A stretch of 64,000 nucleotides of DNA, from NCBI GenBank assembly GCA_018816805.1, contig JAHIVE010000005.1, positions 39,102 through 103,101 on the forward strand. The letters are read 5' to 3'. Source of the stretch: Patescibacteria group bacterium (GTDB lineage Bacteria > Patescibacteriota > Gracilibacteria > UBA1369 > 2-02-FULL-48-14). Made by a program: the position numbers and the translations under genes. Positions within the stretch are counted from its first letter, which is position 1. Each line of letters begins with the position of its first letter. The notes under the pieces were generated by a model. That model had not been told where the DNA came from and made no database searches. It saw only the letters and a program-made list of their open reading frames with translations. Of the stretch, positions 13,715 to 43,517 are shown piece by piece.

Positions 13715-13728
13715 AACACATCCATTAC

Positions 13729-14352: not shown

Positions 14353-14429
<77 letters not shown>

Positions 14430-17816: not shown

Positions 17817-18098
17817 ATGCCTAAAAGCATCCCTTTAGTAGTAATTACGGCATTGATTACAGCTGCCGGAATATACGCAATTACGCGTATTAGTTTGGTA
17901 GGTACTGTTCACAATCAAATCGCACAGATTGAAAGCCTAACTACTCAAAACCAAGAACTCCAAACAGAAGTCACCAGGCTAACTGAAGAGATCACCAGGC
18001 GTGACGCCACTCCTTGTGTAAATCCAAACCCGCCGGATGTGGCAGATGCAACAGACGAAACTGAGTCTACAACGGATTCAACTACCCCCGTAGAGTAG
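17817..18098 (+). CDS. hypothetical small membrane-anchored coiled-coil protein
   Basis: 93-aa ORF with an N-terminal TM segment and a heptad-like stretch. Its 3' end overlaps the convergent purD by 17 nt. Confidence 0.4.
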   Translation: MPKSIPLVVITALITAAGIYAITRISLVGTVHNQIAQIESLTTQNQELQTEVTRLTEEITRRDATPCVNPNPPDVADATDETESTTDSTTPVE

Positions 18099-19395
18099 TC
18101 ATGTGATCAATTCGCTTTTGAATTAAAGCAGCCGTTCCAATATCTCTCCTGTAAAACACAGGTCCCTTCACACAATCCAAGGCACTTTGTGCCTTTCTTT
18201 CCGCTTCCTCCAAGGAATCCGCAATCCCAACAAACGCTATCGCCCTTGAACTTGATAAATAAAGTCCGTCTTCCTTCTTGTCAACAGAACCAAAATACAT
18301 TTTCACACCTTCCGGCACCATACCAATCTCAATTTTATCTCCTTTTTTTGGATTCACAGGATAGCCCTCCGGCACAACATACTTTAAAACAGTCGCCTTA
18401 TTCTCAAATTCCAGTTCCAGTTTCTCCAAAGTCCCCTCAATTATCGCTTCGCAAACCTGAGCAAAATCCGACTTCAAAAGCGGCAAAACATTCATTGCCT
18501 CCGGATCCCCAAACCTGGCATTATATTCAATCAACCTCACACCATCCTTTACGGCAATAAATCCTCCATACATCACGCCCGTAAAATATTTCCCGGTCTC
18601 CTCCTTTAGCGCAGCAGCCACGCGAACAGTAATTTCATGCGCCTCCTTCAAATCACTTTCTCGCAGGAACGGCAGCGAATGATTCACATCACTATATGTT
18701 CCCATCCCGCCTGTATTAGGCCCTGTGTCACCCTCATACGCTCTTTTATGATCCTGCACAGCCGGCATATCTCGCAGTGTTTTGCCATCCGTAAGACTCA
18801 TAAGCGAAAACTCTTCACCCACAAATTTTTCCTCAATCACCACACGACCAGCATCCAAAATACATTCCTCAGCATATTGAACGCCTTCTTCAATAGATTC
18901 CAAATGTACCCCGGAAACTTTCACCCCCTTACCACCAGTTAATCCATCCGCTTTCACCACATAATTCCCGCCAAGTTCTTCAATAAAATCTCTCATGCCA
19001 TCAATCTCTTCAAAGACCCTAAATTCCGGATTCCCAGGAATATTATATTTTTTCATTAAATCACGCGTAAAAGACTTGGAACTTTCCAGTTGCGCAAGCA
19101 TCATTGTAGGCGCAACGCTTTTCACACCAATCTCTAAGAGTTTATCAGCCGCTCCATCCGCAATTGGATTATCCGGCCCCACAAATGCAAAATCAGGTTT
19201 AACTTTCTCTGCAAACGAAATCATTGCATCAAAATCACTCAACGAACCAACTTCATATTCCTCAGAAAGCTCAATAATCCCCGGATTTTTGCTGCTGGCA
19301 TACGTATATAACAAAACTTCCTGTGGACTCCTTTTTAGTGTCTCGGCAATGACATGTTCTCTGGCGCCATTGCCCACAAGCAGAATACGTTTCAT
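18082..19395 (-). CDS. purD: phosphoribosylamine-glycine ligase
   Basis: MKRILLVGNGAREHVIAE N-terminus with an ATP-grasp core; full length at 437 aa. Confidence 0.92.
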   Translation of the reverse strand: MKRILLVGNGAREHVIAETLKRSPQEVLLYTYASSKNPGIIELSEEYEVGSLSDFDAMISFAEKVKPDFAFVGPDNPIADGAADKLLEIGVKSVAPTMMLAQLESSKSFTRDLMKKYNIPGNPEFRVFEEIDGMRDFIEELGGNYVVKADGLTGGKGVKVSGVHLESIEEGVQYAEECILDAGRVVIEEKFVGEEFSLMSLTDGKTLRDMPAVQDHKRAYEGDTGPNTGGMGTYSDVNHSLPFLRESDLKEAHEITVRVAAALKEETGKYFTGVMYGGFIAVKDGVRLIEYNARFGDPEAMNVLPLLKSDFAQVCEAIIEGTLEKLELEFENKATVLKYVVPEGYPVNPKKGDKIEIGMVPEGVKMYFGSVDKKEDGLYLSSSRAIAFVGIADSLEEAERKAQSALDCVKGPVFYRRDIGTAALIQKRIDHMTTLRG

Positions 19396-19402
19396 GATTT
19401 TT

Positions 19403-20893
19403 TTAAATTAATGGTATTTGATTTAAACTTTCACAACCAGACGGCGCAACCCCACTTCGACTATCCTCAGCAGCCCTCAAAACTTCTTCAGTTACGTCTC
19501 CGGTTGGATATTTTCCATCAAAACATGCCATACAGAATTTCTTAATTTTTGGATTTCCTTCCTGCACCGCAGAAACCAAATCATCCAATTCCTGATAAAA
19601 GAGAGCATCAGCCCCAATTTTCTTCGCAGTTTCCTCAATTGTAAGCTCATTTGCAACAAACTCCTTCCTTGATGGCATATCAATCCCATAAACACATGGG
19701 TGGTGTAGGGGAGGCGCACAAGACGCAAAATACACTTTCTTAGCCCCCATTGCCCTAACCATATCCACAATCTGCCTTGAAGTATTGCCGCGAACAATTG
19801 AATCATCCACCAAAAGCACATTTTTACCCTTAATCTCAAGCTGAATTGGATTCAATTTTTGGCGAATCGACTTATTGCGTTTCTCTTGTCCCGGCATTAT
19901 GAAAGTTCGCCCAACATATCTGTTTTTCACCAATCCTTCTCTATACTTAACACCCAATTTATATGCAAGCGGTACAGCAGCATGCTTTGAAGTTGTCGGT
20001 ACCGGAATAACCACATCAATCTTCAAGTTCGCGGCCTTGATCTGTTTAGCCAATTTTTCACCCATCCTGAGCCTGCTTTTATAAACGGAAATATCATCCA
20101 GCATGGAATCCGGCCGCGCAAAATACACATACTCAAAAATACAAGGTGTAAGCTCCGTTTTCCCCGCACAAATCTTCCTATGCACATTTCCATGCAAATC
20201 TACATAAACCGCCTCGCCGGGCGCCAAATCACCAATAACCTCAAACCCCAAAACATCCAACGCCACAGACTCAGACGCCAAAATGGTATCTGTATATAAA
20301 TCATCCTTCCTTTGCCCAAAAATCAGCGGCCGAATCGCATTCGGATCCCTAAAAGCTAAAAGCCCATGCCCTGCAATCAAAGCAATAACCGCATAAGCAC
20401 CCCGAACCCTCTTAAAAACACCCTCCATCGCATTAAAAATATGCTCAGGTTTCAAGCTAAGCCCATCTTGTTTATCAAGTTCATCCGCAAGAACATTCAA
20501 CAAAACTTCAGAATCGCTTCTGGTATTCAAATGACGCTTATTACTCTTAATAACTTGCTCTCGAAGCTCATCTGTATTAGTTAAAGTTCCATTGTGAATC
20601 AATGCAACACCATAAGGGGCATTCACATAAAATGGCTGTGCCTCAGCTGTATCATACGTACCGGCAGTAGGATACCTAACATGTCCAAGCCCCGTATTCC
20701 CGCAAAGCCGCTTACTTTCTGTTGGTCCAAAAACATCCGCTACAAGTCCGTCTCCCTTCACCAAATGAATCTGCTCACTATCATAAGTAACCATCCCGGC
20801 CGCATCCTGACCCCGATGCTGAAGCATCATCAGTCCGTCATAAAGTTGTAAGAAGACGGGGTCGTTTGAATGAATGCCAATTATTCCACACAT
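19403..20893 (-). CDS. purF: amidophosphoribosyltransferase
   Basis: MCGIIGI Ntn N-terminus, PRTase motif VLLVDDSIVRGNTS, and C-terminal cysteines. Confidence 0.93.
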   Translation of the reverse strand: MCGIIGIHSNDPVFLQLYDGLMMLQHRGQDAAGMVTYDSEQIHLVKGDGLVADVFGPTESKRLCGNTGLGHVRYPTAGTYDTAEAQPFYVNAPYGVALIHNGTLTNTDELREQVIKSNKRHLNTRSDSEVLLNVLADELDKQDGLSLKPEHIFNAMEGVFKRVRGAYAVIALIAGHGLLAFRDPNAIRPLIFGQRKDDLYTDTILASESVALDVLGFEVIGDLAPGEAVYVDLHGNVHRKICAGKTELTPCIFEYVYFARPDSMLDDISVYKSRLRMGEKLAKQIKAANLKIDVVIPVPTTSKHAAVPLAYKLGVKYREGLVKNRYVGRTFIMPGQEKRNKSIRQKLNPIQLEIKGKNVLLVDDSIVRGNTSRQIVDMVRAMGAKKVYFASCAPPLHHPCVYGIDMPSRKEFVANELTIEETAKKIGADALFYQELDDLVSAVQEGNPKIKKFCMACFDGKYPTGDVTEEVLRAAEDSRSGVAPSGCESLNQIPLI

Positions 20894-20951
20894 AGGGGGT
20901 CTTTTTTTGGAGACTAAATACTAACGCGAATACTACTTAACCTTCAAGTGA

Positions 20952-21809
20952 TTATTTTTTTGTTTGCTTCCTCGCCGCAACCGCCACGCTTTCCATTAAA
21001 CAAGCAACCGTCATAGGCCCAACGCCACCAGGCACCGGCGTAATAGCCGCAACTTTATCTTTTACTGTATCAAAATTCACATCTCCACAAAGTTTTCCGT
21101 TTTCAAGCCGATTCATCCCAACGTCAATAATAACAGAACCCTCTTTAACCATATCTTCATTAATCAAATTCGGCACCCCGGCCGCCACAACCAGCAAATC
21201 CGCCCATTTTGTATAAACAGTCAGATTTTTTGTTTTACTGTGACAAACCGCCACAGTCGCACCTCTGTTTAGAAGCATAGAGGCAATCGGTTTCCCAACA
21301 ATATTGCTGCGACCAACAACAACCGCATCCATCCCGCTTACATCCACATTGTAATAATCTAAAATTTTAATAATTCCCTTTGGCGTGCACGGTGCCATAT
21401 CTTCAAATTCCTGGCTAATAAACATTTTCCCCAAATTATAAGCCGTAAATCCGTCCACATCCTTCCGTGGATCAATCGCCTTATTGATAAGTGGCACGGA
21501 AATATGCTTTGGCAAAGGCAACTGAACAATAAAACCATGCACCGACTTGTCCTCATTCAACTCCTCCACAACTTTTATAAGATCTTCCTGACTAATACTT
21601 GCATCAAACGCCCTCTTTTCAAACAAAATGCCAACATTTTTACACGCTTTCTCTTTATGCCCCACATAAACCTGGCTCCCCGGATCTTCACCCACAACTA
21701 CCACAACCAATTTAGGCATAATACCTTCCACTTCAAGTTCAACAACATCCTTTTTTACTTGCTCCAAAACCGACTCTGAAACCTTGAGGCCGTCTAAGAT
21801 TTGAACCAT
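20952..21809 (-). CDS. folD: bifunctional methylenetetrahydrofolate dehydrogenase/methenyl-THF cyclohydrolase
   Basis: VGEDPGSQVYV, VVVGRSNIVGKP and ITPVPGGVGPMTVA. Confidence 0.92.
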   Translation of the reverse strand: MVQILDGLKVSESVLEQVKKDVVELEVEGIMPKLVVVVVGEDPGSQVYVGHKEKACKNVGILFEKRAFDASISQEDLIKVVEELNEDKSVHGFIVQLPLPKHISVPLINKAIDPRKDVDGFTAYNLGKMFISQEFEDMAPCTPKGIIKILDYYNVDVSGMDAVVVGRSNIVGKPIASMLLNRGATVAVCHSKTKNLTVYTKWADLLVVAAGVPNLINEDMVKEGSVIIDVGMNRLENGKLCGDVNFDTVKDKVAAITPVPGGVGPMTVACLMESVAVAARKQTKK

Positions 21810-24519: not shown

Positions 24520-25182
24520 TTAGGGAAGAATTCCAAATAATTGCTTCATCTTCTCATGATAACCATAATCATACTCAAAAGCATATAGAGTGTCGCTCTC
24601 CTTTACCACAATATGAACAGTTTTAGTTTTAATTTTATGGTTAAAGTAGAATGAAGTATCTCCATAAGTATTTGTTTCATTAACTTCTCCATAATCCAAT
24701 AGTCCCATAGCTCTTTCACGAATCTTCAAATATCCCTGAAATGCACCAATTTCTGTAGGATATTTGATCTCAGAAACAGCCCCAACGTAAGTCTCATCCT
24801 CAAAAATATTAGATTGATAAACATACGCGTCAGTTTGATCTGAAAAATCAATTATTTGAAAAACCGACCCGTTAAACTGAGCCTCTTTCAAAATAGGATT
24901 TGAGAAACCCACCAACTGAAAATTCAACGCGGAAAGTTCCGGCTCAATCACAGAAATAGAACTTAAAGTTACTTCGTCTTCAGAATTCTGTTTTACAGGT
25001 TCAGTAGTTTCCTCGTCAATTTTTGGCTCTGCCAAAAGTGGCTCAGCAGTTGCAACATTAAGATCCTTAGCATTATCAATGCCACTAATATCAGCTTTTA
25101 AATAATTATGAGAAAGAATATCACCTATAAAGAAAAGTAAGGTGAGTGACAACAAGATCGAAAATATTGTGAATCTTTGCAT
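24520..25182 (-). CDS. hypothetical membrane-anchored or secreted protein
   Basis: 220-aa ORF with an N-terminal hydrophobic segment (FTIFSILLSLTLLFFIG) and no motif. Confidence 0.5.
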   Translation of the reverse strand: MQRFTIFSILLSLTLLFFIGDILSHNYLKADISGIDNAKDLNVATAEPLLAEPKIDEETTEPVKQNSEDEVTLSSISVIEPELSALNFQLVGFSNPILKEAQFNGSVFQIIDFSDQTDAYVYQSNIFEDETYVGAVSEIKYPTEIGAFQGYLKIRERAMGLLDYGEVNETNTYGDTSFYFNHKIKTKTVHIVVKESDTLYAFEYDYGYHEKMKQLFGILP

Positions 25183-25877: not shown

Positions 25878-26426
25878 TTACTTCTTCTTAACCTGATCAA
25901 AATCAAGTTCCACAGCAGTCTCACGACCAAACATTGTGATATTTACTTTAACTTTACCTTTTTCTTGGTCAATTACCTTAATAACGCCTTCATATCCTGC
26001 AAAAGGACCATCCAAAACCATAACCAAATCTCCAACATCCAGTGAAATCTTGAATTTTGGCTGGTTATCTTCACCCATATGTCGCTCAATAATACCATAT
26101 TCCTCAGCGCTAACAGGTACAGGAATAGTCCCGGACCCAACAAATCCCGTAACATTTGGTGTATTACGAACAACATACCAAGATTCATCATCCACAATCA
26201 TGTCAACAAGCACATAACCTGGAAATAATCTCTTTTTCTCAGTTTTGGGTTTACCTTTTTTAACAACAATTTGAGTCTCTTTTGGCACACAAACATCAAA
26301 AATTTTATCCTGCATGCTCATTGACTCAATACGCTGTAGCAATGCAGACTTCACAGCATCTTCATATCCACTGTATGTGTGTACAACATACCAGTGTCTC
26401 CCTGTACCTTTTGCCTGTTTTGCCAT
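25878..26426 (-). CDS. nusG: transcription termination/antitermination factor NusG
   Basis: HWYVVHTYSGYEDAV NGN domain and a C-terminal KOW domain (GDLVMVLDGPFAGYEGVI). Confidence 0.92.
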   Translation of the reverse strand: MAKQAKGTGRHWYVVHTYSGYEDAVKSALLQRIESMSMQDKIFDVCVPKETQIVVKKGKPKTEKKRLFPGYVLVDMIVDDESWYVVRNTPNVTGFVGSGTIPVPVSAEEYGIIERHMGEDNQPKFKISLDVGDLVMVLDGPFAGYEGVIKVIDQEKGKVKVNITMFGRETAVELDFDQVKKK

Positions 26427-26429
26427 TGT

Positions 26430-26633
26430 TTAAAAAGTAATTAACGAATAAAGCTCGCTAAGCCCCAAATCAAGAGCCGCAATAAAAGCCGCCATAATTA
26501 TAGAAACAGCTACAACTACACCTGTTAACATCACAGCTTGTTCTTTAGTTGGCCATGTAATCTTCCCAAACTCCTCAAAAGCTCCAACAAAAAAAGCAAC
26601 AATAGGGTTACTTTTGGCTTCCTTTTTACTCAT
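26430..26633 (-). CDS. secE: preprotein translocase subunit SecE
   Basis: 67 aa with KITWPTKEQAV followed by a single TM segment, immediately upstream of nusG. Confidence 0.85.
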   Translation of the reverse strand: MSKKEAKSNPIVAFFVGAFEEFGKITWPTKEQAVMLTGVVVAVSIIMAAFIAALDLGLSELYSLITF

Positions 26634-26815
26634 TTTATTAGGGATTAGTAGTCAATTTTAAAAGGCCTCTTGGGCCATTTGTTCTTACGACATAAATATT
26701 ACGCCCAAAATTTAAAAAAAACAAGTGATTTTTCTCTCAAAATCTGCTATACTTATTAGATAAAAAACAAAAATAAATGAGATTTAAATTCCTAGAAAAC
26801 AAATATAGGACCAAC

Positions 26816-27703
26816 ATGATACTCCTTGCAGTGTGCGCTGCAGCGTTTTTTGCTTCAATTCCACACCTGGCACATGCCGCTTTCCTACCTCTTCCTTCAA
26901 CTGAAGAGCTGGACGTCCCAACTCCCACAGGAGAAACAGCAGCTGAACGTTTTGAAAGCATATTGGGGCCACTTGCAAGGTCAATTAGAATCGTTGTTGG
27001 TGCAATTGCCGGTCTATTAATAGTTGTATCAGGTATAACAATGGTTCTTGGCGGAGAAAGCGAAGAAACAGTAACAAACCAGAAAAAATCAATAATGTAC
27101 GGAGTAATTGGTCTAATTATGATAAGTGTTGCAGGTCCAATTGCAGAAGTTTTTGACTTTAGAGCTGGAAACATAGTTGCAGATGACAAACTAATGCTAG
27201 AGAGAGCTGCACTTTTTAACAGCGCAACACGGCTAATTATTACTTTTTTGAAATATATGCTGGGTTCGTTGGCTGCACTTATGTTTATCCGTGCTGGTGC
27301 AACAATGGTTATGTCAGGCCAAAGCGAAGAGGACATTACTCGAGAAAAAAAGAATCTCATTTATTCGGGTGGAGGATTAATGATGGTCATTTTTTCAGAC
27401 CTTGTTGTCCGCAAAGTACTATTTGCTACAAGCTACAACGAAGACACACAACAAACTGTTGCTGCAGTTAATCAAAACGAATTTGTAACCCAATTGGTTG
27501 CAATTACAAACATTGTGGTCAGCTTTGTAGGACCGGTGATGATGCTTGGATTGGTTATTGGAGCAGTAATGTTTGTAACCGCTCATGGCAACGAAGAACA
27601 GACGGAAAAAGCAAAAAAGATTATAATCAATTCAGTGATTGGTATTGTAATAATATATGGGGCATTCGCTCTTGTTTCAACAGTAATTAACGGAGTCTTC
27701 TAA
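26816..27703 (+). CDS. membrane protein made of three tandem VirB2/TrbC-like (CPR T4SS-pilin-like) hairpin units
   Basis: Signal peptide MILLAVCAAAFFASIPHLAHA, then three units of TM, charged loop, TM. The loops are GITMVLGGESEETVTNQKKSIMYGVIG, GATMVMSGQSEEDITREKKNLIYSGGG and AVMFVTAHGNEEQTEKAKKIIINSVIG. The track ORF starts at 26777; ATG 26816 is preferred. Confidence 0.7.
   Translation: MILLAVCAAAFFASIPHLAHAAFLPLPSTEELDVPTPTGETAAERFESILGPLARSIRIVVGAIAGLLIVVSGITMVLGGESEETVTNQKKSIMYGVIGLIMISVAGPIAEVFDFRAGNIVADDKLMLERAALFNSATRLIITFLKYMLGSLAALMFIRAGATMVMSGQSEEDITREKKNLIYSGGGLMMVIFSDLVVRKVLFATSYNEDTQQTVAAVNQNEFVTQLVAITNIVVSFVGPVMMLGLVIGAVMFVTAHGNEEQTEKAKKIIINSVIGIVIIYGAFALVSTVINGVF
26939..27700 (+). 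repeat. intragenic triplication of the pilin-like hairpin (units about 26939-27157, 27197-27424, 27476-27700)
   Basis: Read from the protein sequence. Repeat similarity is at the protein level, not the nucleotide level. Confidence 0.7.
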
Positions 27704-28668
27704 TGAAAAAATTCTCAATAATTATATGCGCGCTACTGATGCAACTCACTCTAATTTCAACTGTGAGTGCGGCAACAAGTTTTGATTATAAAGATACGCT
27801 CAAGCAATTTTCTGAAGATATTGAAACAATTAGTGAAGATCTATCCGACCAAACAGAAACAGATACGGATGGTGTAATTTCATTGCCCACTTTCCAAGCT
27901 GACGATGAGCAGGAGGGTGCAAGCACAATTGCACTGGCAATTCAAAGATTCATGAATTTTTTCAAATTGCTGGTTGCACCTCTAGCAATTTTGGCAATAG
28001 TGATCGCCGGAGTTAAATTGGTTACAGCCGGACGTGACAGCGAAGAAGCCGCAACAAAAGCAAAAAACTTCATTCGTTATGCCGCAGAAGGCCTGATAAT
28101 CATTATTATTGCTGACCAGATCATTAACGTAATTTTTGGGCCTACCGGAGAAATTTTCAGAGGAGGCCAGGCGGGCGCAGAAGAATATGGAAGAAAAACT
28201 GCACAACTTATGGAAGGAATCTACAGCTTAATTCAAGTAATTATTGGTTCAGTCGCAATTTTCATGATTGTAATAGCTGGTATGCGTTATGTGGCCGGAT
28301 CCGCTTCAGACGAACAAATTGCAACTGCAAAAAAACAAATCACTTGGGCCTTGATTGGACTTTTTGTTGTGGGAGTATCTGAATTTGTTGCAAAAGACAT
28401 TTTATTCCAGCAACAAGGAACAAAAATTGGTTTTGATCAAGCAAAACAACTTTTCGCACAGGTTACAAACTTTGCTGCAGGCACAATCGGCACACTTTCA
28501 TTCGCTTTTATGCTTTATGCAGGTTACCTATACGTGACCGCCCAAGGCGACGAAGACCAAGTTGCCAAAGCAAAAAAGATAATTTTTGGTGCCATAATTG
28601 GCATTTTGTTGGCTGGATCAGCGTACGCAATTACTTCAACCATTGTTCAACTTGATGCTTCAAGGTAA
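27703..28668 (+). CDS. second membrane protein made of three tandem VirB2/TrbC-like pilin hairpin units
   Basis: Signal peptide ...ISTVSA, an acidic linker, then three units with loops GVKLVTAGRDSEEAATKAKNFIRYAAEG, GMRYVAGSASDEQIATAKKQITWALIG and GYLYVTAQGDEDQVAKAKKIIFGAIIG. The start codon overlaps the upstream stop (TAATG). Confidence 0.7.
   Translation: MKKFSIIICALLMQLTLISTVSAATSFDYKDTLKQFSEDIETISEDLSDQTETDTDGVISLPTFQADDEQEGASTIALAIQRFMNFFKLLVAPLAILAIVIAGVKLVTAGRDSEEAATKAKNFIRYAAEGLIIIIIADQIINVIFGPTGEIFRGGQAGAEEYGRKTAQLMEGIYSLIQVIIGSVAIFMIVIAGMRYVAGSASDEQIATAKKQITWALIGLFVVGVSEFVAKDILFQQQGTKIGFDQAKQLFAQVTNFAAGTIGTLSFAFMLYAGYLYVTAQGDEDQVAKAKKIIFGAIIGILLAGSAYAITSTIVQLDASR
27922..28653 (+). 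repeat. intragenic triplication of the pilin-like hairpin (units about 27922-28140, 28192-28407, 28438-28653)
   Basis: Read from the protein sequence. Confidence 0.7.
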
Positions 28669-28702
28669 TTAACTCTATAATGCAGTGGAAAAATCACACG
28701 CC

Positions 28703-31700
28703 ATGAGAATTCGAAAACTTTTTACGGGATTAGCTCTAACGCTTATCGCAACTTCCATGTTTGCGATAGCACCGCTAGCTTCCGCAATTTCTTTTGATGT
28801 TGCGGTAGGTGATCCGGACGCTTCTCAAGGTGACATTACAGCTGCAGAATGTGCTGGCCTTGAAGACAGCTTGGCAGCTTCAATGGGTTGTAATTCGGAA
28901 GATGAAATTATTGACTTCACCACATATAGAGGAGAGCTAGATGCTCCTGACGAAAGCGGGTATGACACAGCACTAACAAAAACAAAGAGCGCCAGAGAAA
29001 TGGTCCAGTTGATTGTGAATTTTGCACTTTCATTCTTAGGATTAGTTTCCACAGTAATAATAATTTATGGAGGTGTAATGTACGTGCTGAGCCGTGGGGA
29101 TGAAGAAATGGCAACAAAGGGAAAGAAAGCAATCTCATACGCGGTTGTTGGTATTGTGATCATTTTGGCTTCTTTTGCAATTGTTAACACTCTTATTGGT
29201 GCAGCCGGGGGAGGAAACGCCGGATCAGGGGACGGCATTACCGGCGACACAATTTCCCAGGCAGGCGCTGGCTTTGACGTTGAACAAGTTCTGGATGAAC
29301 TAACCTCAATTTCTGAAGACTATGTTTACGCCTACGACACACTCATTTTTGTAAATCAAGAAGTCGAATACCTAAAATCGATTGAAATGCCACTGATTGT
29401 GGATGTAGTTGAGACGGATGTGAGCATTGGAGGAATATCAGAGTGGATCACACATCTTGGCACTGACCAAGATTTATCTGACCAATACCAACTCATTGAT
29501 GAAAACGACGTGGATGAATATATAAGTGATCTAAGGCAAGGTCTCCAAAAAATTCAAAGAGAAGTAGATTCACTAAGTGATACCTACGAGAAAGTCCAAG
29601 AACTCTACAACTATCTTAGGAGCGGCGGCTCACAAGCAAACACAACGCTAAATGAGATAGCTGAGCTACTAATACCAATGGCAAATGCATATGAAGGTAC
29701 GGATGGCTGCAGTTCAAGATCCTATTCCCACAATCCGGTATCTTTAAGTGAAGGATTCGGTATCAACTCTACTCAAACCAAAGTCAGCGAAATTGACGAC
29801 AACATCTGTCCCGCACTGGATGACATTCAAGCCGCCGCAGAATCAGACTATGTAGAGGCAGTAGATGAACTTATTAAACGAACAGACGACTTAGCAGCTC
29901 TTTTTGACACCGGTGGCCAGGAAGGCTCAACACTAAATTTGATACGCAAACGTTTCGAGCTTATCGACACGCAACTTGAAACAGCAAAGGATCGCATTAC
30001 AAACCAAACAAAAAGAGATGTAATTGGTGCAATAAATGACGCTTACGTCTTGGTTCAAAACGTAAAATTTGTTAACGCAATAATCAATACAAGTGGCACC
30101 CGCGGGAACGCACCATATATTGTTCGATTCGACGCACTTGGCTCAACTGACCCAAGCGGAAGAACAATTGATGACACAAAAATTCAATGGGATCTAACAG
30201 GAAATGGGCAATTCAATGACGCAACAGGCGCGTCCGTAAGCTGGGAATATTCTAAAGCCGGTACTTACCAGGTCGCCGTTCGCATATTTAGCACACAGGA
30301 TGACATAGCCGCAGGTATTGGAAGAATTACAATAATTGTTGAACCACGCTCATCAGCTATAGTTGTTTCAGCAGAAGCAGGGGGTGAAACAACCCAAATA
30401 GCAGATTTCAGAGAATTTCCATACATTGATAAAGACTCGTACAAGGTTACCTTAAACGAAGCACAATCCGGAATAACATTTGACGCCTCAGCATCTGAAG
30501 GGGCTAACAAAGAAAACATTGAGCAATGGGAATGGAATTTTGGTGACGGAGCAACAATTTCAGGCGGATCTGAAGTCTCATCCGTTACACACGCATACGG
30601 TGAAGCTGGCCAATATAAAGTTGAACTAACCGTCACTGACGCAGTTAGAATCCAGGACAGGCACGTTTTTGTAGTCTATGTAGATTCACCAGCCGCAAGA
30701 ATTGAAGCAACTCCGTCAACAGGCAAAATTGGAACAAAATTCAAACTTAGCGCAGGAGGCTCCACAACGGATGCGGGCACAATAGTTAGTTATCAATGGT
30801 CTGTGACCCCGGTTGGAAGTGATTCTTTTTCATCACAAACCGGCAGTAATGTTGAAGTCGAATTTGACTCGCCGGGAGTCTACACAGTTACTTTGTTGGT
30901 AGCTGATTCAAGTGGAAAAACAGACGACGCATCCCTTGACATATTAGTTGAATCTCAAACACCGGATGCAAAATTCACATATTCGGTCCCAAACGCAACT
31001 GAACCGGGCACATACCATTTTGACGCTTCTGACAGCTACGACCCTGATCCAAATGATGAGATCATATACAACTGGGATTTTGGCGGAGATGAAGGCGCAG
31101 ACTTTGAAATCTTGGACGACAACAATTTTGGTGAAGATATGACTGTTCGTTTCTTAAGAACAGGAAAATATGAAGTATCTTTAACAGTTTGTGACCAACA
31201 TCAAGAAGAATTACAAAAATGTGAAGATGCAGTTGCAGAAATCAATGTGTCCTCTGTATTAGATGTTGAACTCACAATTCAAGCAGGTGTAACAAGACGT
31301 TTGGATGAAAGCGGCGAAGAAAGCGTTAATTTTGAAGCATACAGTAGATCCGCAAACGCATTTGAAATTGACTACGGAGATGGCGAATCTGAATACACAG
31401 ACTTAATCACAAGCGGATTCGCAAATTTCACTCACGCATATACAAGAGCAGGAGTGTTTAATGTTACATTGACAGTTTATGACGAAGGGGAGGGACGCAA
31501 CTCAATAACAAGAAGAGTTTATATTGCATCCGGCGAAAACCCAATTGCAGTAATAAGTGTAGCGGCAGATGGTGAAGATATTGGCTTTGGTGACGAACTT
31601 TCAGGGAACGTACAAACACGTTTCACTTTTGACGCATCAGACTCAATAAATACTGACGGAACCACCAACAACCTCTCGTATACCTGGAATTTTGGAGATG

Positions 31701-33499
31701 GCACAACAGCCTCTCAGAAGAGCACCACAAAAACATTCGAAGAATTAACAAATTATACAGTAACCCTAACCGTTAAGGACAAAGATGACCCAAGTCTTTC
31801 AGACCAAAGCACAGTCTATATTCGCATTCAAGGAATTGACCCTGAAATAAAGGGGATCACAATAACACCTGCCTCAGCCACACTTGAAACGCCACTCAAA
31901 GTAAACGTTAGCGTTAATGCTTCAGACAAAGATGGCCGAATAAATTTTGTAAAAGGTTGGTATTATGACGTGAACGACTCTGCAACCGCCCTTGGAACTG
32001 TAATTTCAGAATCCACAAATTTCTCCCTCACAATCAACACAAAAGGTGAGCAAGACGAACAAGTCACTTACGGTTTTGCCGCTGAAGTCACAGACAATGA
32101 CAACAGAACCGTAAATTCATTCGAAGAACTCCAAGAGTCGGAAATCCCAAAACTCACAGTCACAAACGGACCAAATGACACGCCGGTCGCAAACTTTTCA
32201 GTGGATAGAACTTCATTTTTGGTAGGGGAAGAAGTTGTGTTTTCATCAACCTCATACGACCCGGATGGCGAAATTGTTGAATATGTGTGGGACGTTGAAG
32301 GTGACGGTTTCTTTAATAACGAACCTCAAGAAACACCCTCTTTTACTTATATATATCATGACGTTCACACGAGCGGCGTAAAAGTTAAATTAAAGGTAAC
32401 AGACAATGCCGGCGCAACAGCAACTTCAAAAGAACTCACTTTATATGTGGATACTTTGGCGTCACCTCCGGATGCAGCGTTCCTAGCTGACGTAAATGGC
32501 CTAAATGTAACTTTCCACGACAACTCTACATTCGACACAGCAAACCAAGCTGACTTCAAAGGAATATCTTGGGATTTTGACACAAGCGTGGACAGCAACG
32601 GAAATGGAGTAACAGATGATGATAAAGATTCTCTAGATAGAAATCCCAGCCACACTTATGACGAACTGGGCACGTACCGTGTAAGCATGACAGTAACAGA
32701 TACCTTCGGTAAGAGTGACTCAGTCACAAGAGAAGTATTGGTTGCTAACGCAGCTGACCCGGTTGCAGCTTTCACATTTAGCCAAACAGACGACTTCTCA
32801 ATTGCTTTCCAAAACAATTCCACAACTGACGAAGATGCAGGCGCGCTTGTAAGAAGCTTTGAATGGGATTTTGACACAAATTACGACTCAGATGGTGACG
32901 GAAACAACGCTAATGACGTGGATAGCATAATCAAAAATCCTGACTTCAATTATGACGACTTTGGAACATATTCGGTTAAATTAACCGTAACAGACGACTT
33001 TGGCAAAAAGGATTCTGTTACAAATAATGTAGAGGTGTCTTCTCCAATCCAACCCGTAACAGCACTACTTGCAACTGTCCCACAAACAAATGCAAACAAA
33101 CAGATAATTATGAGCGGAACCTCAGGTGACATTACAATATTCTACAATGCGGAAGGAGGTAGTGGAAATTTCACATATAGAATTGATAAAAATATCTTTT
33201 TTGACACGTCAGGGGACGGCATAAAAGATAATGACATTGATTACTCATCACGAACATCAGGCAGTTGGAGAACAAATTTTGATAAATCTTGGGGACAAAT
33301 TGTAATTAAACTCACAGTTATTGATAACACGACCGGTGACAGCTCGTTCTCAACAGCGCAAGTAATTTTTCAAGGCAGTCTAGCGGGAGCAAATCTCTTT
33401 AACGCTACACCTTCGGAAATGCTATTTTTAATAATCAGTGCACTCTTAGTAGCAATTGTAGGAGTGTCATTAGTATTTAGTTTTAAACCCGTAAAATAA
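28703..33499 (+). CDS. giant surface protein: signal peptide, one pilin-like hairpin, ~300-aa helical region, about ten PKD/Ig-like domains, C-terminal TM anchor
   Basis: The hairpin is VSTVIIIYGGVMYVLSRGDEEMATKGKKAISYAVVGIVIILASFAIV (nt about 28991-29200). PKD signatures recur (WNFGDG, WDFGGDEG, YGDGESEY, WDVEGDG, WDFDT..D..G.G). The C-terminus is LFLIISALLVAIVGVSLVF. The track start at 28685 is GTG; ATG 28703 is preferred. Confidence 0.8.
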   Translation: MRIRKLFTGLALTLIATSMFAIAPLASAISFDVAVGDPDASQGDITAAECAGLEDSLAASMGCNSEDEIIDFTTYRGELDAPDESGYDTALTKTKSAREMVQLIVNFALSFLGLVSTVIIIYGGVMYVLSRGDEEMATKGKKAISYAVVGIVIILASFAIVNTLIGAAGGGNAGSGDGITGDTISQAGAGFDVEQVLDELTSISEDYVYAYDTLIFVNQEVEYLKSIEMPLIVDVVETDVSIGGISEWITHLGTDQDLSDQYQLIDENDVDEYISDLRQGLQKIQREVDSLSDTYEKVQELYNYLRSGGSQANTTLNEIAELLIPMANAYEGTDGCSSRSYSHNPVSLSEGFGINSTQTKVSEIDDNICPALDDIQAAAESDYVEAVDELIKRTDDLAALFDTGGQEGSTLNLIRKRFELIDTQLETAKDRITNQTKRDVIGAINDAYVLVQNVKFVNAIINTSGTRGNAPYIVRFDALGSTDPSGRTIDDTKIQWDLTGNGQFNDATGASVSWEYSKAGTYQVAVRIFSTQDDIAAGIGRITIIVEPRSSAIVVSAEAGGETTQIADFREFPYIDKDSYKVTLNEAQSGITFDASASEGANKENIEQWEWNFGDGATISGGSEVSSVTHAYGEAGQYKVELTVTDAVRIQDRHVFVVYVDSPAARIEATPSTGKIGTKFKLSAGGSTTDAGTIVSYQWSVTPVGSDSFSSQTGSNVEVEFDSPGVYTVTLLVADSSGKTDDASLDILVESQTPDAKFTYSVPNATEPGTYHFDASDSYDPDPNDEIIYNWDFGGDEGADFEILDDNNFGEDMTVRFLRTGKYEVSLTVCDQHQEELQKCEDAVAEINVSSVLDVELTIQAGVTRRLDESGEESVNFEAYSRSANAFEIDYGDGESEYTDLITSGFANFTHAYTRAGVFNVTLTVYDEGEGRNSITRRVYIASGENPIAVISVAADGEDIGFGDELSGNVQTRFTFDASDSINTDGTTNNLSYTWNFGDGTTASQKSTTKTFEELTNYTVTLTVKDKDDPSLSDQSTVYIRIQGIDPEIKGITITPASATLETPLKVNVSVNASDKDGRINFVKGWYYDVNDSATALGTVISESTNFSLTINTKGEQDEQVTYGFAAEVTDNDNRTVNSFEELQESEIPKLTVTNGPNDTPVANFSVDRTSFLVGEEVVFSSTSYDPDGEIVEYVWDVEGDGFFNNEPQETPSFTYIYHDVHTSGVKVKLKVTDNAGATATSKELTLYVDTLASPPDAAFLADVNGLNVTFHDNSTFDTANQADFKGISWDFDTSVDSNGNGVTDDDKDSLDRNPSHTYDELGTYRVSMTVTDTFGKSDSVTREVLVANAADPVAAFTFSQTDDFSIAFQNNSTTDEDAGALVRSFEWDFDTNYDSDGDGNNANDVDSIIKNPDFNYDDFGTYSVKLTVTDDFGKKDSVTNNVEVSSPIQPVTALLATVPQTNANKQIIMSGTSGDITIFYNAEGGSGNFTYRIDKNIFFDTSGDGIKDNDIDYSSRTSGSWRTNFDKSWGQIVIKLTVIDNTTGDSSFSTAQVIFQGSLAGANLFNATPSEMLFLIISALLVAIVGVSLVFSFKPVK
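30077..33050 (+). repeat. tandem PKD-like domain array (approximate bounds)
   Basis: W-x-F/W-G-D-G type motifs recur roughly every 85-100 aa, each followed by a ...Y.V.LTVTD... strand. Confidence 0.7.
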
Positions 33500-33501
33500 T
33501 T

Positions 33502-35658
33502 ATGGAAGACACCACACCCCAGCCGCAAAATCCAAATTCGGAAGCACATAATCCGGAACAACAAGCAACGCCAAGCCAACCGCAAACCGAGCAAACTCCG
33601 CCACCTGTGCCAACACCCGGCACGGTCACTGAGCAAACTCCGCAGGTGCCACAACAAGATAAAAACGCAAAAAAACCAGTAAAAAAAGGCTCTGCTTTCA
33701 AGAGATTATTACTCATGCTTGGACTGGTATTCCTTCTTTTATTTGTTTTTGAATTCGTTTGGGCCTCAACCTTAGCAAAAGGCAGCGCATTAGATAAACT
33801 AATACTAACGGTTACAAATATTCAATGCGGCATTTTAGTTGGAGCTTCACTTCTGTACGCGCTCTTTGGTTTATTAAAATCATTGCTTGCAAAAAAAGAT
33901 CCATTAAAAAAGAAAAAAGCTACAAAAACAGCACTCGTAGGCGGAGTTTTCTTCCTATTATCAGCACTTCTTTGGCTTTTTGCAGTCATTTATCTTCCAC
34001 CACGCCTCACGCCGGAACAACAATATGTTTCATACATATTAACTGATCCAGCAGTGACTCTTGGCTTAACAGCACCAATTGAAGTTGAATTTGATGCAAG
34101 CCAAATACCGGTTGATACAAACGCATTTAGAGTTCTCTCATACACCTGGAATTTTGGAGACGGAGGTACTGCAAACGGCCCAACCGTTTCACATAGATTC
34201 ATCCAAAAACCACCAAATGGAACCTACAACGTAGTTCTAAAAGTATCCTTTATGGATCTGAAAACAGGGGAACAATTATCTGAAGAGTTTACTACAGTAG
34301 TAGGTATTGAAAATGAAGAAGTCGCTGCAATTTTCACCGCAACCCCTTCCAGCGGGAACGTGCCCTTGGATGTTGAATTCAACGCATCCTCATCATACGA
34401 CCCGGACGGAGAAATAGTTGCATATGACTGGGATTTTGATGGCGATGGCAGCTATGACGACGCTTCCGGAGTAATTGTTTCATACACATTCGAACAAGAA
34501 GGCGAATTTACAGTGGGCTTAAGAGTTACGGACAATAACGGACAATATGCAACCACAGCATACAAAATTGAAGCAGGTAGCGTTGGAGGACTAAGAGCAG
34601 TAATTAGCGCACCACTACAAACGGACGAAACATATAAAACAGGAGAAAAATACAAATTCTCAGGCGAACTTTCTCAAATAAGAGAAGGGGAGGTTGTTAA
34701 ATATGTTTGGGACTTTGGTGACAAATCTGACACAATTCAATCAAGAACAGCCACTCATGAATTCACAAAATCTGGCGACTACGAAGTTTCTTTAACAGTT
34801 TTTGACGTTGATGGAAATTCCCACACAGCAACACTGGAAATCAAGGTTGTTGAACAAGGAACACCACCTTCGGCAAAAATAAAAACATCTCCGGCTGCAC
34901 AAAATAATGTAACCTCAGGAGCGGTGCCATTTGAAGTTTCTTTCGACGCCTCAAGTTCAACTGACCCAGAAGATGACATTGTTGAATATGAATGGGATTT
35001 TAACAATGACGGAGTTATTGATGATTCGGGTGACAAAGTAACTTACACATATGAAGAAGTAGGTGTATATGAAGCAAAACTAATTGTCACTGACGCTGCA
35101 GGAAACTCAAACACAATCACAATTGGCATTTCTGTTGAAGAACAAGGAATCGTAGCCAGGTTGAGCGCAAACGTAACCAATGGCGAGGCACCTCTAACAG
35201 TTACATTTGATGCATCATCATCTTCGTATAAAGAAGGAAACATTGTTTCATATGAATACGACTTTGGTGATGGATCTGACGTACACGTTGGCGGCGCAAA
35301 AATTTCATACAAATATATTAATGTAGGTAATTTCACCGTAAAACTCACTGCTATAGGTGAAGATGGAACCAAGGACACAACAACTATGCAAATTGTAGTC
35401 AGACCGGTTGAGATAACTGCTTGTTTCACGGTAAATACAGACAGTGGTAGTGCACCTCTTTTTGTTGCGGTTGATCCAATATGTTCAAAAGGGACAATCA
35501 GATCATATGTATGGGATTTTGATGATGGTGAAATCAGTTTTGACAGAAAACCTGACATCCATACTTATTCCGAACCAGGGACATACACCATCTCATTAGA
35601 AGTTACCTCTGAGGACAGAACAGTAGATGTATTTGAAAAAACCATCACAGTAAGATAA
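33502..35658 (+). CDS. membrane protein: Pro/Gln/Thr-rich N-terminal tail, TM segments with a Lys-rich loop, six PKD-like domains
   Basis: N-terminus PQPQNPNSEAHNPEQQATPSQPQTEQTPPPVPTPG. TM hairpin LVGASLLYALFGLLKSLLAKKDPLKKKKATKTALVGGVFFLLSALLWLF. PKD motifs are YTWNFGDGG, YDWDFDGDG, YVWDFGDKS, YEWDFNNDG, YEYDFGDGS and YVWDFDDGE. It starts 2 nt after the upstream stop codon. Confidence 0.8.
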   Translation: MEDTTPQPQNPNSEAHNPEQQATPSQPQTEQTPPPVPTPGTVTEQTPQVPQQDKNAKKPVKKGSAFKRLLLMLGLVFLLLFVFEFVWASTLAKGSALDKLILTVTNIQCGILVGASLLYALFGLLKSLLAKKDPLKKKKATKTALVGGVFFLLSALLWLFAVIYLPPRLTPEQQYVSYILTDPAVTLGLTAPIEVEFDASQIPVDTNAFRVLSYTWNFGDGGTANGPTVSHRFIQKPPNGTYNVVLKVSFMDLKTGEQLSEEFTTVVGIENEEVAAIFTATPSSGNVPLDVEFNASSSYDPDGEIVAYDWDFDGDGSYDDASGVIVSYTFEQEGEFTVGLRVTDNNGQYATTAYKIEAGSVGGLRAVISAPLQTDETYKTGEKYKFSGELSQIREGEVVKYVWDFGDKSDTIQSRTATHEFTKSGDYEVSLTVFDVDGNSHTATLEIKVVEQGTPPSAKIKTSPAAQNNVTSGAVPFEVSFDASSSTDPEDDIVEYEWDFNNDGVIDDSGDKVTYTYEEVGVYEAKLIVTDAAGNSNTITIGISVEEQGIVARLSANVTNGEAPLTVTFDASSSSYKEGNIVSYEYDFGDGSDVHVGGAKISYKYINVGNFTVKLTAIGEDGTKDTTTMQIVVRPVEITACFTVNTDSGSAPLFVAVDPICSKGTIRSYVWDFDDGEISFDRKPDIHTYSEPGTYTISLEVTSEDRTVDVFEKTITVR
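34054..35655 (+). repeat. tandem PKD-like domain array (six units, approximate bounds)
   Basis: Six W/Y-D/N-F-G/D-D-G motifs at regular spacing. Confidence 0.7.
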
Positions 35659-41788: not shown

Positions 41789-42364
41789 GTGAAATATTTC
41801 CAAAAAATCATCTTCATCACCATCCTGACAATTCTCTTGTTTGGGTGCACAAAACCTCAAGAAGAATCGAAGGAAACTCAAACATATCCTAAGCCATCCG
41901 GCAATCTGATTTTAGGGACAATGGCTGATTCTTGCGGTCAAATTTTAAGCGAACCATATCAACTGGATGCATATTTTGAAAATCATCCATACAATCAAGA
42001 AAATTATACTTATTACGTTTACCGTGATGATGATTACCTCAATTCCAATTACTGGTTTGGGTATCAGGCAAACGTGGTTCTTTCATACAAAATTTCTGAA
42101 GAAATGGATCAAGGAGATTTATTCAGGGTAGACTGGGTTTTAGAAACCATTGATGATGAAACACAGGAAGAATCAGACAAGGTTATCAAAAAACATACAA
42201 TAACTGGTCTGCTGCCATGTGAAAACGGAGACTTATATCTAGGCTCAAACCTGAATCTTTCTGAAACGGAAATCACAGACCTAATTTCAAACCTGCGAGT
42301 TGATATTTACTACAATGACAGGCTTGTCGATTCAAAGATGTTCAATATTGACGGAGTGTCATAA
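41789..42364 (+). CDS. hypothetical lipoprotein
   Basis: GTG/ATG-start ORF with the lipobox ILLFGCTKP and no other motif. Confidence 0.5.
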   Translation: MKYFQKIIFITILTILLFGCTKPQEESKETQTYPKPSGNLILGTMADSCGQILSEPYQLDAYFENHPYNQENYTYYVYRDDDYLNSNYWFGYQANVVLSYKISEEMDQGDLFRVDWVLETIDDETQEESDKVIKKHTITGLLPCENGDLYLGSNLNLSETEITDLISNLRVDIYYNDRLVDSKMFNIDGVS

Positions 42365-42365
42365 T

Positions 42366-43517
42366 ATGAAAAAATTACTCTCTTTTATACTAGTCGCAAG
42401 CATGACAATTTCCGCATGTAATAGCCAACCAACGCAATTAAATGCCAAAATTCTCAATGAATCTCTCGCCTTGGGAACCGAATACTTATTGAATAGTCAA
42501 AAAGAAGAAGGCAATTTCATTTACGAATATAATTTTAAAACAAAAGAAATCAGCAAAGATGACAATCAAGTGCGCCAAGCTGGTGCTTTATGGGGTATTG
42601 CTCTGATTCACCATTATCAACCAAGTGAAAAAACACTTTCAGCCATTGAAAAAAGCTTAAATTATTTTGAATCAATTAGTAAAACAACTGAAAACGGAGG
42701 AAGATATGTTGTGTACAATGATGGGACTTCAGGGAAAAGCGGAACAATTGCCCTGATCACTCTGGCTCTAGTTGATCTTCTTGAATCAAATTTCAAAATT
42801 AACAACCGTGAAAAATATGAATCTCAGCTGAACGAATATTTAAATTTCCTAATTTCTTTAAGAAAAGATGATGGATTATTTTACTCAAAATTCCGTTACG
42901 AGGACGGGGAAGGGTATTCCACTCCATCACCTTACGTTGACGGCGAAGCACTTCTAGCAATGATAAGAGCGGCAAATTATCTAAAAAGGGAAGACCTTTT
43001 CATCCAAATAGACGAATCAGCAGAGCAAATGTACAAAACAAACGTGCAGGAAGCATTAGAAGAAAATCCGGATAGTGACACAACAAAAGGCTTCTTTCAG
43101 TGGGGAATAATGTCTTTTTATGAGCTCTACAATAAAGATCCTCACAAATATAAAGAATACGCTCAGTACTCAATTGAACTTGCAAATTGGATGATAGACG
43201 TACACAGAACTCTGGAACGCACAAAAAACACTTCCTACGCTTATGAAGGAATTGTATTGGCATATGAATTAGCAAATCGCATGCATGAAAAATCAACGGA
43301 AGAAAAATTTAAATCAGTCATTGACCAGGGGCTTTACAAATTAACTTCATGGCAAGTTGGTTCTCAAATCCAAATAGATTATATTGAAAATCTTAAAGTG
43401 GACGACGTTCTTGCAAAAGGCGGCGTCATGAACGCTGCAGACGAACCACTGCTGCGCATTGACGTCACACAACATCAAATGCACGCAGTGATTCTTGCTT
43501 TAGAATTTGTATACTAA
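42366..43517 (+). CDS. hypothetical lipoprotein (helix-rich; fold unknown)
   Basis: MKKLLSFILVASMTISACN signal/lipobox. ATG 42366 is preferred over the track start at 42300, which overlaps the previous gene. Confidence 0.55.
   Translation: MKKLLSFILVASMTISACNSQPTQLNAKILNESLALGTEYLLNSQKEEGNFIYEYNFKTKEISKDDNQVRQAGALWGIALIHHYQPSEKTLSAIEKSLNYFESISKTTENGGRYVVYNDGTSGKSGTIALITLALVDLLESNFKINNREKYESQLNEYLNFLISLRKDDGLFYSKFRYEDGEGYSTPSPYVDGEALLAMIRAANYLKREDLFIQIDESAEQMYKTNVQEALEENPDSDTTKGFFQWGIMSFYELYNKDPHKYKEYAQYSIELANWMIDVHRTLERTKNTSYAYEGIVLAYELANRMHEKSTEEKFKSVIDQGLYKLTSWQVGSQIQIDYIENLKVDDVLAKGGVMNAADEPLLRIDVTQHQMHAVILALEFVY

Follow-up and report, generated by a model that had tools for sequence, protein, structure and literature searches.

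VirB2-like pilins are among the gene sets most enriched in bacteria of the Candidate Phyla Radiation (CPR) and are essential in Saccharibacteria. They pose the questions of what these pilins build and of how the monoderm CPR epibionts contact their hosts. The locus described here raises the first question in another form: what does such a pilin do when it is the N-terminal part of a giant PKD-domain protein? The protein is encoded by gene C, which lies within a 64,000-nucleotide stretch (below, the window) of contig JAHIVE010000005.1, assembly GCA_018816805.1, from a Patescibacteria group bacterium assigned by GTDB to the Gracilibacteria. A sequence-only reading of this DNA had described gene C as a pilin-like hairpin fused to a PKD adhesin stalk, and all of the sequence features that it listed were found in the protein at the positions that it gave. 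We report that, judged by sequence, the gene C hairpin truly belongs to the VirB2-like pilins of the CPR and that gene C comes third in an operon of four genes (A to D) that is core and vertically inherited in Peribacteria and Peregrinibacteria. The layout of gene C is as follows.

28685-33499, + strand: gene C, a giant of 1604 aa; one uninterrupted open reading frame (ORF)
28685..28786, + strand: signal peptide, aa 1-34, ending APLASA, with a GTG start and an alternative ATG at codon 7 (hydropathy; A-x-A in orthologues P0001 and P0002)
28787..28990, + strand: part of the ectodomain ahead of the hairpin, aa 35-102, in which two Cys residues and the motif DFT.Y.G.L..PD..GYD..LT are conserved (alignments)
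28991..29200, + strand: VirB2/TrbC-like pilin hairpin, aa 103-172 (PF18895, hidden Markov model (HMM) of solo pilins, AlphaFold2 (AF2) model)
29201..29269, + strand: flexible Gly-rich linker, aa 173-195 (sequence; AF2 predicted local distance difference test (pLDDT) <50 at model residues 140-161)
29270..30064, + strand: alpha/beta "neck" domain, aa ~196-460, of no recognisable family (AF2)
30065..33370, + strand: array of 11 PKD/Ig-like domains, aa 461-1562 (PF18911 and our own HMM)
33419..33478, + strand: C-terminal transmembrane (TM) helix, aa 1579-1598, then a short basic tail, SFKPVK (hydropathy)

A fusion of this kind could be an artefact in which an assembly chimera or a missed frameshift joined a small pilin gene to a PKD gene, and the sequence-only reading had allowed for a frameshift in the source assembly. 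However, besides the uninterrupted frame, an identical copy of the 1604-aa protein is present on an independent ENA contig. A search with the full-length query gave about 95 homologues of 1480-1760 aa, from NCBI, JGI, ENA and Logan assemblies, which align collinearly over ~100% of their length at 26-67% identity and nearly all of which match both PF18895 and PKD. The pilin-neck-PKD junction is conserved among orthologues, and the GTDB genomes contributed 45 complete orthologous ORFs. The identical protein, the collinear homologues and the conserved junction exclude a frameshift or chimera, and we give the artefact virtually no credence.

The identity of the hairpin was established by family profiles and by comparison with stand-alone pilins. 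The Pfam family of type IV secretion system (T4SS) pilins, PF18895 T4SS_pilin, matches gene C aa 106-170 with 34.3 bits against a cut-off of 26.6 (E=2.6e-8), and many stand-alone CPR pilins of 125-146 aa are 57-64% identical to the hairpin, which bears out the resemblance to CPR pilin-like proteins noted in the sequence-only reading. A profile search gave 120 stand-alone CPR pilins (68-146 aa) and an HMM was built from these solo pilins only, although the set is biased towards the gene C hairpin because the retrieval profile included that hairpin. When this HMM was scored against all 666 stop-to-stop segments of the whole window in six frames, the gene C hairpin gave the top score (104.2 bits) and the six hairpins of genes A and B scored 35-95 bits, whereas no other segment exceeded 4.7 bits. 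The concern that the hairpin would do no better than generic TM pairs is thus removed, as segments outside the operon reached at most 4.7 bits. The AF2 model gives two long helices (aa 103-135 and 140-174, pLDDT ~88-91), and by hydropathy SRGDEEMATKGKK is the loop between the two hydrophobic helices. By both predictions gene C appears to have the PF18895 arrangement of a signal peptide followed by two TM helices with a short charged loop. It departs from that family in size, the family being one of small stand-alone proteins of ~100-150 aa (all 120 listed solo homologues have at most 146 aa) and gene C having 1604. Two related families are not reached by gene C: PF04956 TrbC/VirB2 (16.9 vs 27.9 bits) and NCBIfam NF045849 (25.3 bits at the same hairpin, cut-off 40).

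The topology of the protein follows from its N terminus. The gene C N-terminal sequence, MRIRKLFTGLALTLIATSMFAIAPLASA, has an A-x-A site and lacks a prepilin motif, and a sequence and hydropathy scan gave an n/h/c-type signal peptide at aa 1-34. As the sequence-only reading had it, this peptide ends in APLASA and looks cleavable; the product is, on this prediction, Sec-exported. The hairpin would be inserted N-out/C-out with its charged loop in the cytoplasm. Given a signal peptide followed by such a hairpin, the ~1400-aa region that follows would have to be extracellular, in agreement with the earlier proposal that the whole PKD stalk lies outside the cell. Solved conjugative pili have both termini of VirB2, N and C, exposed to solvent, and its charged loop turned towards the lumen (bioRxiv 10.1101/2024.03.04.583355). 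Hence, by analogy, both a C-terminal cargo and head-to-tail chaining of hairpins would be geometrically permissible.

Gene C was modeled to examine the region between the hairpin and the PKD array. A first AF2 run with a 3-sequence alignment was unusable (pLDDT 42.5), and the model used covers aa 35-560 (526 residues) with an 88-sequence alignment and a mean pLDDT of 80. The Gly-rich linker noted after the hairpin is disordered in this model (pLDDT <50). For aa 180-470 the sequence-only reading had described a ~300-aa helical region and proposed a structure prediction. AF2 predicts with confidence an alpha/beta domain of ~260 aa (aa ~199-458) composed of about eight helices and a sheet of 4-6 strands, with pLDDT mostly 85-98. 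The helices thus stand, but given the sheet the region would be only partly helical. The neck has no Pfam or NCBIfam match above cut-off, only sub-threshold matches of coiled-coil type (e.g., WXG100, E=0.001), and a PDB sequence-profile search, which found nothing for the neck or the C-terminal tail, returned only chance matches to expression-tag and linker sequences. Foldseek comparison of the whole 526-residue model with the PDB found PKD domains only, with none for the neck or hairpin; as the query was the uncropped model, the neck may have a VirB5-like or other fold.

The stalk itself is well defined. The AF2 model also shows the first PKD sandwich, which superposes on solved PKD domains with a TM-score of ~0.8 (Foldseek). 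PF18911 scores 255 bits on gene C in nine PKD_4 stretches, and with our own PKD HMM aa 461-1562 divide into 11 PKD/Ig-like domains, of which two are weak, so that the PKD array reported after the helical region holds up. Both a PKD family score above threshold (PF18911/PF00801) and a beta-sandwich fold are therefore present. At ~4 nm per PKD domain we estimate that the ectodomain, if extended, would reach roughly 40-50 nm.

The C terminus varies within the family. In this species the giant ends, as had been described, in a TM segment (hydropathy maximum 2.97) followed by SFKPVK. About 60% of the family end in a TM helix and basic tail (27/45 complete orthologues, 60/97 representatives). The other ~40% of the family lack the helix and end right after the last Ig-like domain, with the motif ...W.TNF.K.WG..V.KLTV.D.... 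As only ~60% of members have it, the C-terminal TM helix is not essential to the core function of the family. The earlier proposal of a stalk tethered at both ends is thus topologically consistent in this species but does not extend to the family as a whole. For the alternative offered with it, use of the C-terminal helix for sorting, no recognizable signal was found. The last 70 aa gave no NCBIfam or Pfam sorting-signal match, even at E<=10; LPXTG is absent from the gene C sequence; and the sequence fits no member of the sorting-signal class (LPXTG/sortase, PEP-CTERM, GlyGly-CTERM and similar).

How widespread is the fusion? Queries with aa 1-480 or with an 83-aa hairpin profile retrieved only proteins of about query length, and these short-query searches made the family look rare (three hits) and the pilins uniformly small. 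The full-length query and an exhaustive HMMER search gave a wider family. The HMMER search, run against 1.84 billion cluster representatives, yielded 127 matches at E<=1e-30; among the best 150 matches, 103 had at least 1000 aa and the N-terminal layout of gene C, and all six matches tested had PF18895 above threshold together with PKD arrays. The family comprises >100 clusters at 50% identity. In public annotation its members go by no other name than "PKD domain-containing protein" or else "TrbC/VirB2 family protein, partial".

Species genomes of GTDB were then scanned with a 6-sequence subset, as the 27-sequence alignment was too divergent, and the ORFs of the resulting 70 loci were annotated with our own hairpin and PKD HMMs. 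The search of related genomes for hairpin-plus-PKD architectures, which the sequence-only reading had suggested, gave more than isolated fusions: the same cassette order was found on five metagenome contigs and in ~45-50 species genomes whose names place them in Peribacteria, Peregrinibacteria or Gracilibacteria. The order is secE-nusG on the opposite strand, a three-hairpin protein of 302-391 aa, a three-hairpin protein of 313-395 aa, the giant with one hairpin and 7-18 PKD domains, and a six-PKD protein of 697-851 aa. The gene picked out from sequence is therefore a clade-wide core gene in an invariant cassette, and its links to genes A, B and D had not been drawn. In the window the other members of the cassette and its flanking marker genes are as follows.

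25878..26633, - strand: nusG and secE, divergent conserved neighbors marking the fixed chromosomal position of the cassette (synteny)
26777..27703, + strand: gene A, for an exported protein of 308 aa that has three VirB2-like (PF18895) hairpins in tandem (86.4 bits, 3 stretches)
27703..28668, + strand: gene B, for an exported protein of 321 aa, also with three hairpins in tandem; the gene B start and the gene A stop overlap (PF18895, 98.8 bits, 3 stretches)
33502..35658, + strand: gene D, 718 aa, in which a P/Q-rich tail at the N terminus is followed by three TM helices (aa 63-169) and then by six PKD domains (aa 179-718) (PF18911, 283 bits, 6 stretches)

The genes are packed as an operon in which, beyond the A/B overlap, B and C are 16 nt apart and C and D are 2 nt apart. 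A convergent gene encoding a fumarase-class lyase lies downstream of gene D. A promoter-like sequence, TTGATG-18 nt-TATAAT (10/12 matches; 28652-28681, + strand), covers the last part of gene B and the spacer between B and C just upstream of the gene C start; the promoter and terminator scan as a whole was not above shuffled expectation.

Genes A and B both encode a signal peptide. Gene A passes PF04956 TrbC (28.8 vs 27.9 bits) and NF045849 (43.8 vs 40), and gene B also passes NF045849 (50.8 vs the cut-off of 40). In each protein the third hairpin is canonical by the solo-pilin HMM (90 bits in A and 94.5 in B), whereas the first two are divergent (35-52 bits). All gene A orthologues have three hairpins, and gene B is conserved in all syntenic loci. 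An all-versus-all comparison of the hairpins of 35 complete cassettes showed that A1, A2, A3, B1, B2, B3 and C1 are position-specific orthologues (diagonal 889-1185 of ~1190 best matches). Of the seven, C1 is the most conserved, with a mean identity of 62%. Seven position-specific lineages point to fixed, non-redundant positions rather than to variable copies. The length of the giant is also narrowly distributed, the 45 complete orthologues having a median of 1630 aa with 34 of them within 1500-1700 aa. Longer family members have 1870-2650 aa and up to 18 PKD domains.

Gene D has six PKD domains in every orthologue. Its start (33502-34008, + strand) encodes a Pro/Gln-rich low-complexity tail of ~60 aa, presumably cytoplasmic, ahead of the three TM helices, and this tail is kept in orthologues with highly variable length and sequence. 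The TM2-loop-TM3 portion of gene D is in register with the pilin hairpin profile (hhalign 58%, P=1e-4; reversed control P=0.045), and gene D has a sub-threshold match to NF045849 (15.9-20.2 vs the cut-off of 40), whereas the solo-pilin HMM did not detect a gene D hairpin. Perhaps TM2-loop-TM3 is an eighth, degenerate hairpin.

Hairpins joined to large ectodomains are also found elsewhere in the CPR. Falkowbacteria encode proteins of 836, 862 and 3077 aa that combine PF18895 with Big_5, TIG and Laminin_G_3 domains, and a 3345-aa protein has an N-terminal hairpin plus TIG and Big_5. Such fusions (Big_5/TIG/Laminin_G_3, up to 3345 aa) form two- or three-gene clusters (L071, 3811-19093; L073, 7163-19855; L067, 7713-16759) in Falkowbacteria and in metagenome-assembled genomes labeled Gammaproteobacteria. 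At L073 a signal peptidase I (S26) gene lies ~1.8 kb upstream of the first fusion gene. A 574-aa hairpin-plus-PKD protein lacking the neck domain was found on an unassigned metagenome contig (L002, 755-8092) together with a solo pilin of 141 aa and PKD proteins of 1155 and >560 aa. As the same N-terminal hairpin carries other cargo in other lineages, the hairpin-plus-ectodomain arrangement is a recurrent CPR design. Peribacteria also have a stand-alone pilin of 133-138 aa at a conserved site between murB-murA-truB and nadD-nadE, without T4SS neighbors (L059, 9875-10276; L061, 3297-3713).

Have such proteins been described? The closest relatives by sequence are the CPR T4SS_pilin (PF18895) arrays (Wang et al. 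2023, PMC10633639; Quinonero-Coronel et al. 2025, PMC12102498), which share with gene C a signal peptide, two helices and a charged loop. Gene C passes their family cut-off and is 57-64% identical to solo pilins, and in both cases several divergent hairpins form a tandem array. However, the pilins of the arrays are stand-alone proteins of ~100-150 aa, often near virB4, whereas here T4SS genes are absent nearby, ~1430 further residues are attached to one hairpin, the six others are chained three per protein and the composition of the array is fixed rather than variable. In Southlakia six small VirB2-like pilins form an essential array (PMC10633639; PMC12857230); that A and B together also have six hairpins may be coincidence. 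The Mycoplasma integrative and conjugative element pilin-like family (NF045849, Mbov_0395/MMCAP2_0565) recognizes the same hairpin, A and B passing its cut-off and C and D remaining below it, but its members are ~80-aa proteins of conjugative elements.

The nearest functional concept would be, by analogy, the modular type IV pilin, which belongs to an unrelated pilin superfamily. PilB and PilC of Streptococcus sanguinis (PMC8179133, PMC9934059) likewise consist of an assembly module plus a bulky adhesin module and are proposed to have a low copy number or a tip position. Their pilin fold is unrelated to that of gene C, and so is their machinery, that of type 4 filaments with a class III signal peptide and a prepilin peptidase. 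Gene C has an ordinary A-x-A signal peptide, a two-helix hairpin and a cargo ~10-fold larger, and it lacks the prepilin motif (G/FTLxE) that in type IV pilins goes with a single N-terminal alpha1 helix. VirB5-type tip proteins and the Gram-positive T4SS adhesin PrgB occupy the niche that gene C would fill, contact with the target cell, but are separate polypeptides not fused to a pilin, and family scans, PDB profiles and Foldseek gave no sequence or fold match of gene C to either. Other PKD-repeat surface proteins (the archaeal surface-layer protein 1L0Q, collagenase PKD domains) have a tandem PKD stalk like that of gene C but are anchored by S-layer, LPXTG or catalytic domains rather than by a pilin hairpin. 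Pam pili (bioRxiv 10.64898/2026.03.03.709456) are likewise a CPR-specific surface filament system of Ig-like folds, but Pam pilins use donor-strand exchange and have no VirB2-like hairpin. NCBIfam NF058578 PamR gave only 42.7 bits over 60 residues of one gene C PKD domain against a cut-off of 300, and gene C is not a member.

The sequence-only reading knew of no described example for VirB2-type pilins, and we likewise found no paper describing a PKD or adhesin fusion. The literature searched (PMC12102498, PMC10633639, PMC12857230, PMC11665869, PMC4736985, PMC8080830) mentions only small-pilin arrays, without adhesin fusions. The CPR T4SS survey detected no adhesins and no PrgB-like adhesin in Patescibacteria (PMC12102498), and a December 2025 T4SS review describes arrays of small pilins only (PMC12857230). 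The fusion and its cassette are conserved and apparently undescribed in this literature.

What, then, would the cassette build? We propose as the likeliest reading, though with somewhat less than even confidence, that A, B and C (perhaps D as well) bring their hairpins together in one VirB2-like bundle that roots PKD stalks for adhesion, and that gene C encodes a "modular pilin" made of an assembly/anchor module and an adhesin module. The single hairpin of C would join the six of A and B, which are not equivalent to one another, and perhaps a degenerate one in D. Together they would give a VirB2-like helical bundle of defined heteromeric make-up, which would stand at the cytoplasmic membrane as a short pilus-like stub or a basal platform. 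From this bundle the PKD arrays of both C and D would project through the wall and S-layer as an adhesive fiber for host or particle contact, and in this species a stop-transfer helix would re-anchor the C terminus of gene C. Two ~515-aa proteins with paired SLH domains are encoded in the window (7800-9341 and 43514-45073, both - strand) and imply a wall-anchored S-layer, which the PKD stalk would have to cross. The modular pilin is supported by the identity of the hairpin, the topology, the ectodomain Cys pairs, the tight operon, the invariant 3+3+1 cassette and the distinct hairpin lineages, and further by the narrow length spread at 26-67% identity, the fusions elsewhere in the CPR and the Southlakia array.

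Several points weigh against this proposal. No T4SS family (VirB4, VirB6 and others) was found in the scanned ORFs of the window, and no T4SS gene is present among the cassette neighbors at five related loci, so that gene C lacks the VirB2-type property of being encoded with a T4SS (VirB4 plus partners) at any of these places. Nor is there a T4SS gene next to the solo Peribacteria pilin, or at the Falkowbacteria and other CPR fusion loci. T4SS genes are, however, reported to be dispersed in the GTDB class Gracilibacteria, which contains these organisms (PMC12102498; the supplementary tables have no Peribacterales entries as text), and hence the lack of linkage is weak evidence either way. The C-terminal anchor of 60% of the family and the long cytoplasmic tail of D agree with proteins that stay in the membrane no less well than with proteins extracted into a fiber. 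Co-assembly of A, B, C and D is suggested by synteny only, and adhesion by analogy with the general roles of PKD domains. Moreover, we know of no CPR VirB2-like protein that has been shown to form a filament.

Alternatively, the PF18895 hairpin could be purely a membrane anchor, a two-pass and oligomerization domain that never leaves the cytoplasmic membrane, with no pilus and no T4SS. Gene C would then be a three-TM protein with a 1400-aa loop as a surface fibril or fence. The C-terminal TM helix and basic tail of ~60% of the family, the long cytoplasmic tail and three TMs of gene D and the location of the cassette among housekeeping genes without T4SS genes nearby all fit such an anchor, and a fixed stoichiometry suits a closed membrane complex. 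However, a generic anchor should drift, whereas the C hairpin is the most canonical pilin of the window (104 bits) and the most conserved of the seven (62%). Moreover, the second anchor is missing in ~40% of the family, and one TM helix would suffice, which makes the six further conserved hairpins of A and B hard to explain. We consider an anchor of this kind possible but doubtful. The sequence-only reading had likened the fusion to a tip or minor pilin, which for gene C is a putative role. In another arrangement gene C would be a tip pilin with a ruler or tether, nucleating a pilus of A and B and sitting at its tip while the membrane-held PKD chain limits fiber length to the thickness of the envelope. 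A length spread that is narrow for a repeat protein (34/45 within 1500-1700 aa), homologues collinear end to end and the presence in this species of two membrane-competent ends are in accord with a ruler, but 40% of members lack the C-terminal TM helix, some giants reach 1870-2650 aa with up to 18 PKD domains and there is no evidence for any pilus. We therefore think a tip pilin with a ruler very unlikely.

Other features of the window lie outside the cassette. ORFs without a Pfam match are at 1261-3015 (- strand, 584 aa), 42300-43517 (+ strand, 405 aa) and 24520-25182 (- strand, 220 aa), and an ORF of ~207-220 aa without a Pfam match lies at the same rplK-nusG position in related genomes (position only was compared). 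The genes purD, purF, gnd and zwf, of purine synthesis and the oxidative pentose-phosphate pathway, are at 18082-21809 and 59405-62262. This is more metabolism than is found in most CPR and fits reports for Peribacteria. An ORF for a RhuM-family "virulence protein" (13681-14352, + strand) abuts tRNA-Ala (14353-14429) and could be a mobile-element remnant.

The recurrent fusion to adhesin-type giants bears on what the CPR pilins are for: it suggests that the "pilins" serve to anchor or assemble adhesive structures at the cell surface and are not only conduit subunits. The finding also exposes an annotation gap, as the family is labeled as PKD only and the main CPR T4SS survey reported no adhesins. 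As the PKD stalk is expected to be both large and conserved, it should show up in cryo-electron tomography; the cassette is delimited clearly enough to be expressed in another host, and its stoichiometry gives a prediction that can be checked. A bolder version of the modular pilin, which we think unlikely but worth stating, is that the VirB2-like hairpin is a general CPR display scaffold, that the Peribacteria cassette specifies an entire heteromeric appendage, and that seven or eight non-equivalent hairpins (3+3+1, perhaps +1) form a lipid-embedded pilus-like fiber or ring without a linked T4SS, with the PKD stalk of ~45 nm as adhesin and length ruler. If true, bacterial surface filaments would gain a new class, and VirB2-type pilins their first "modular" member.

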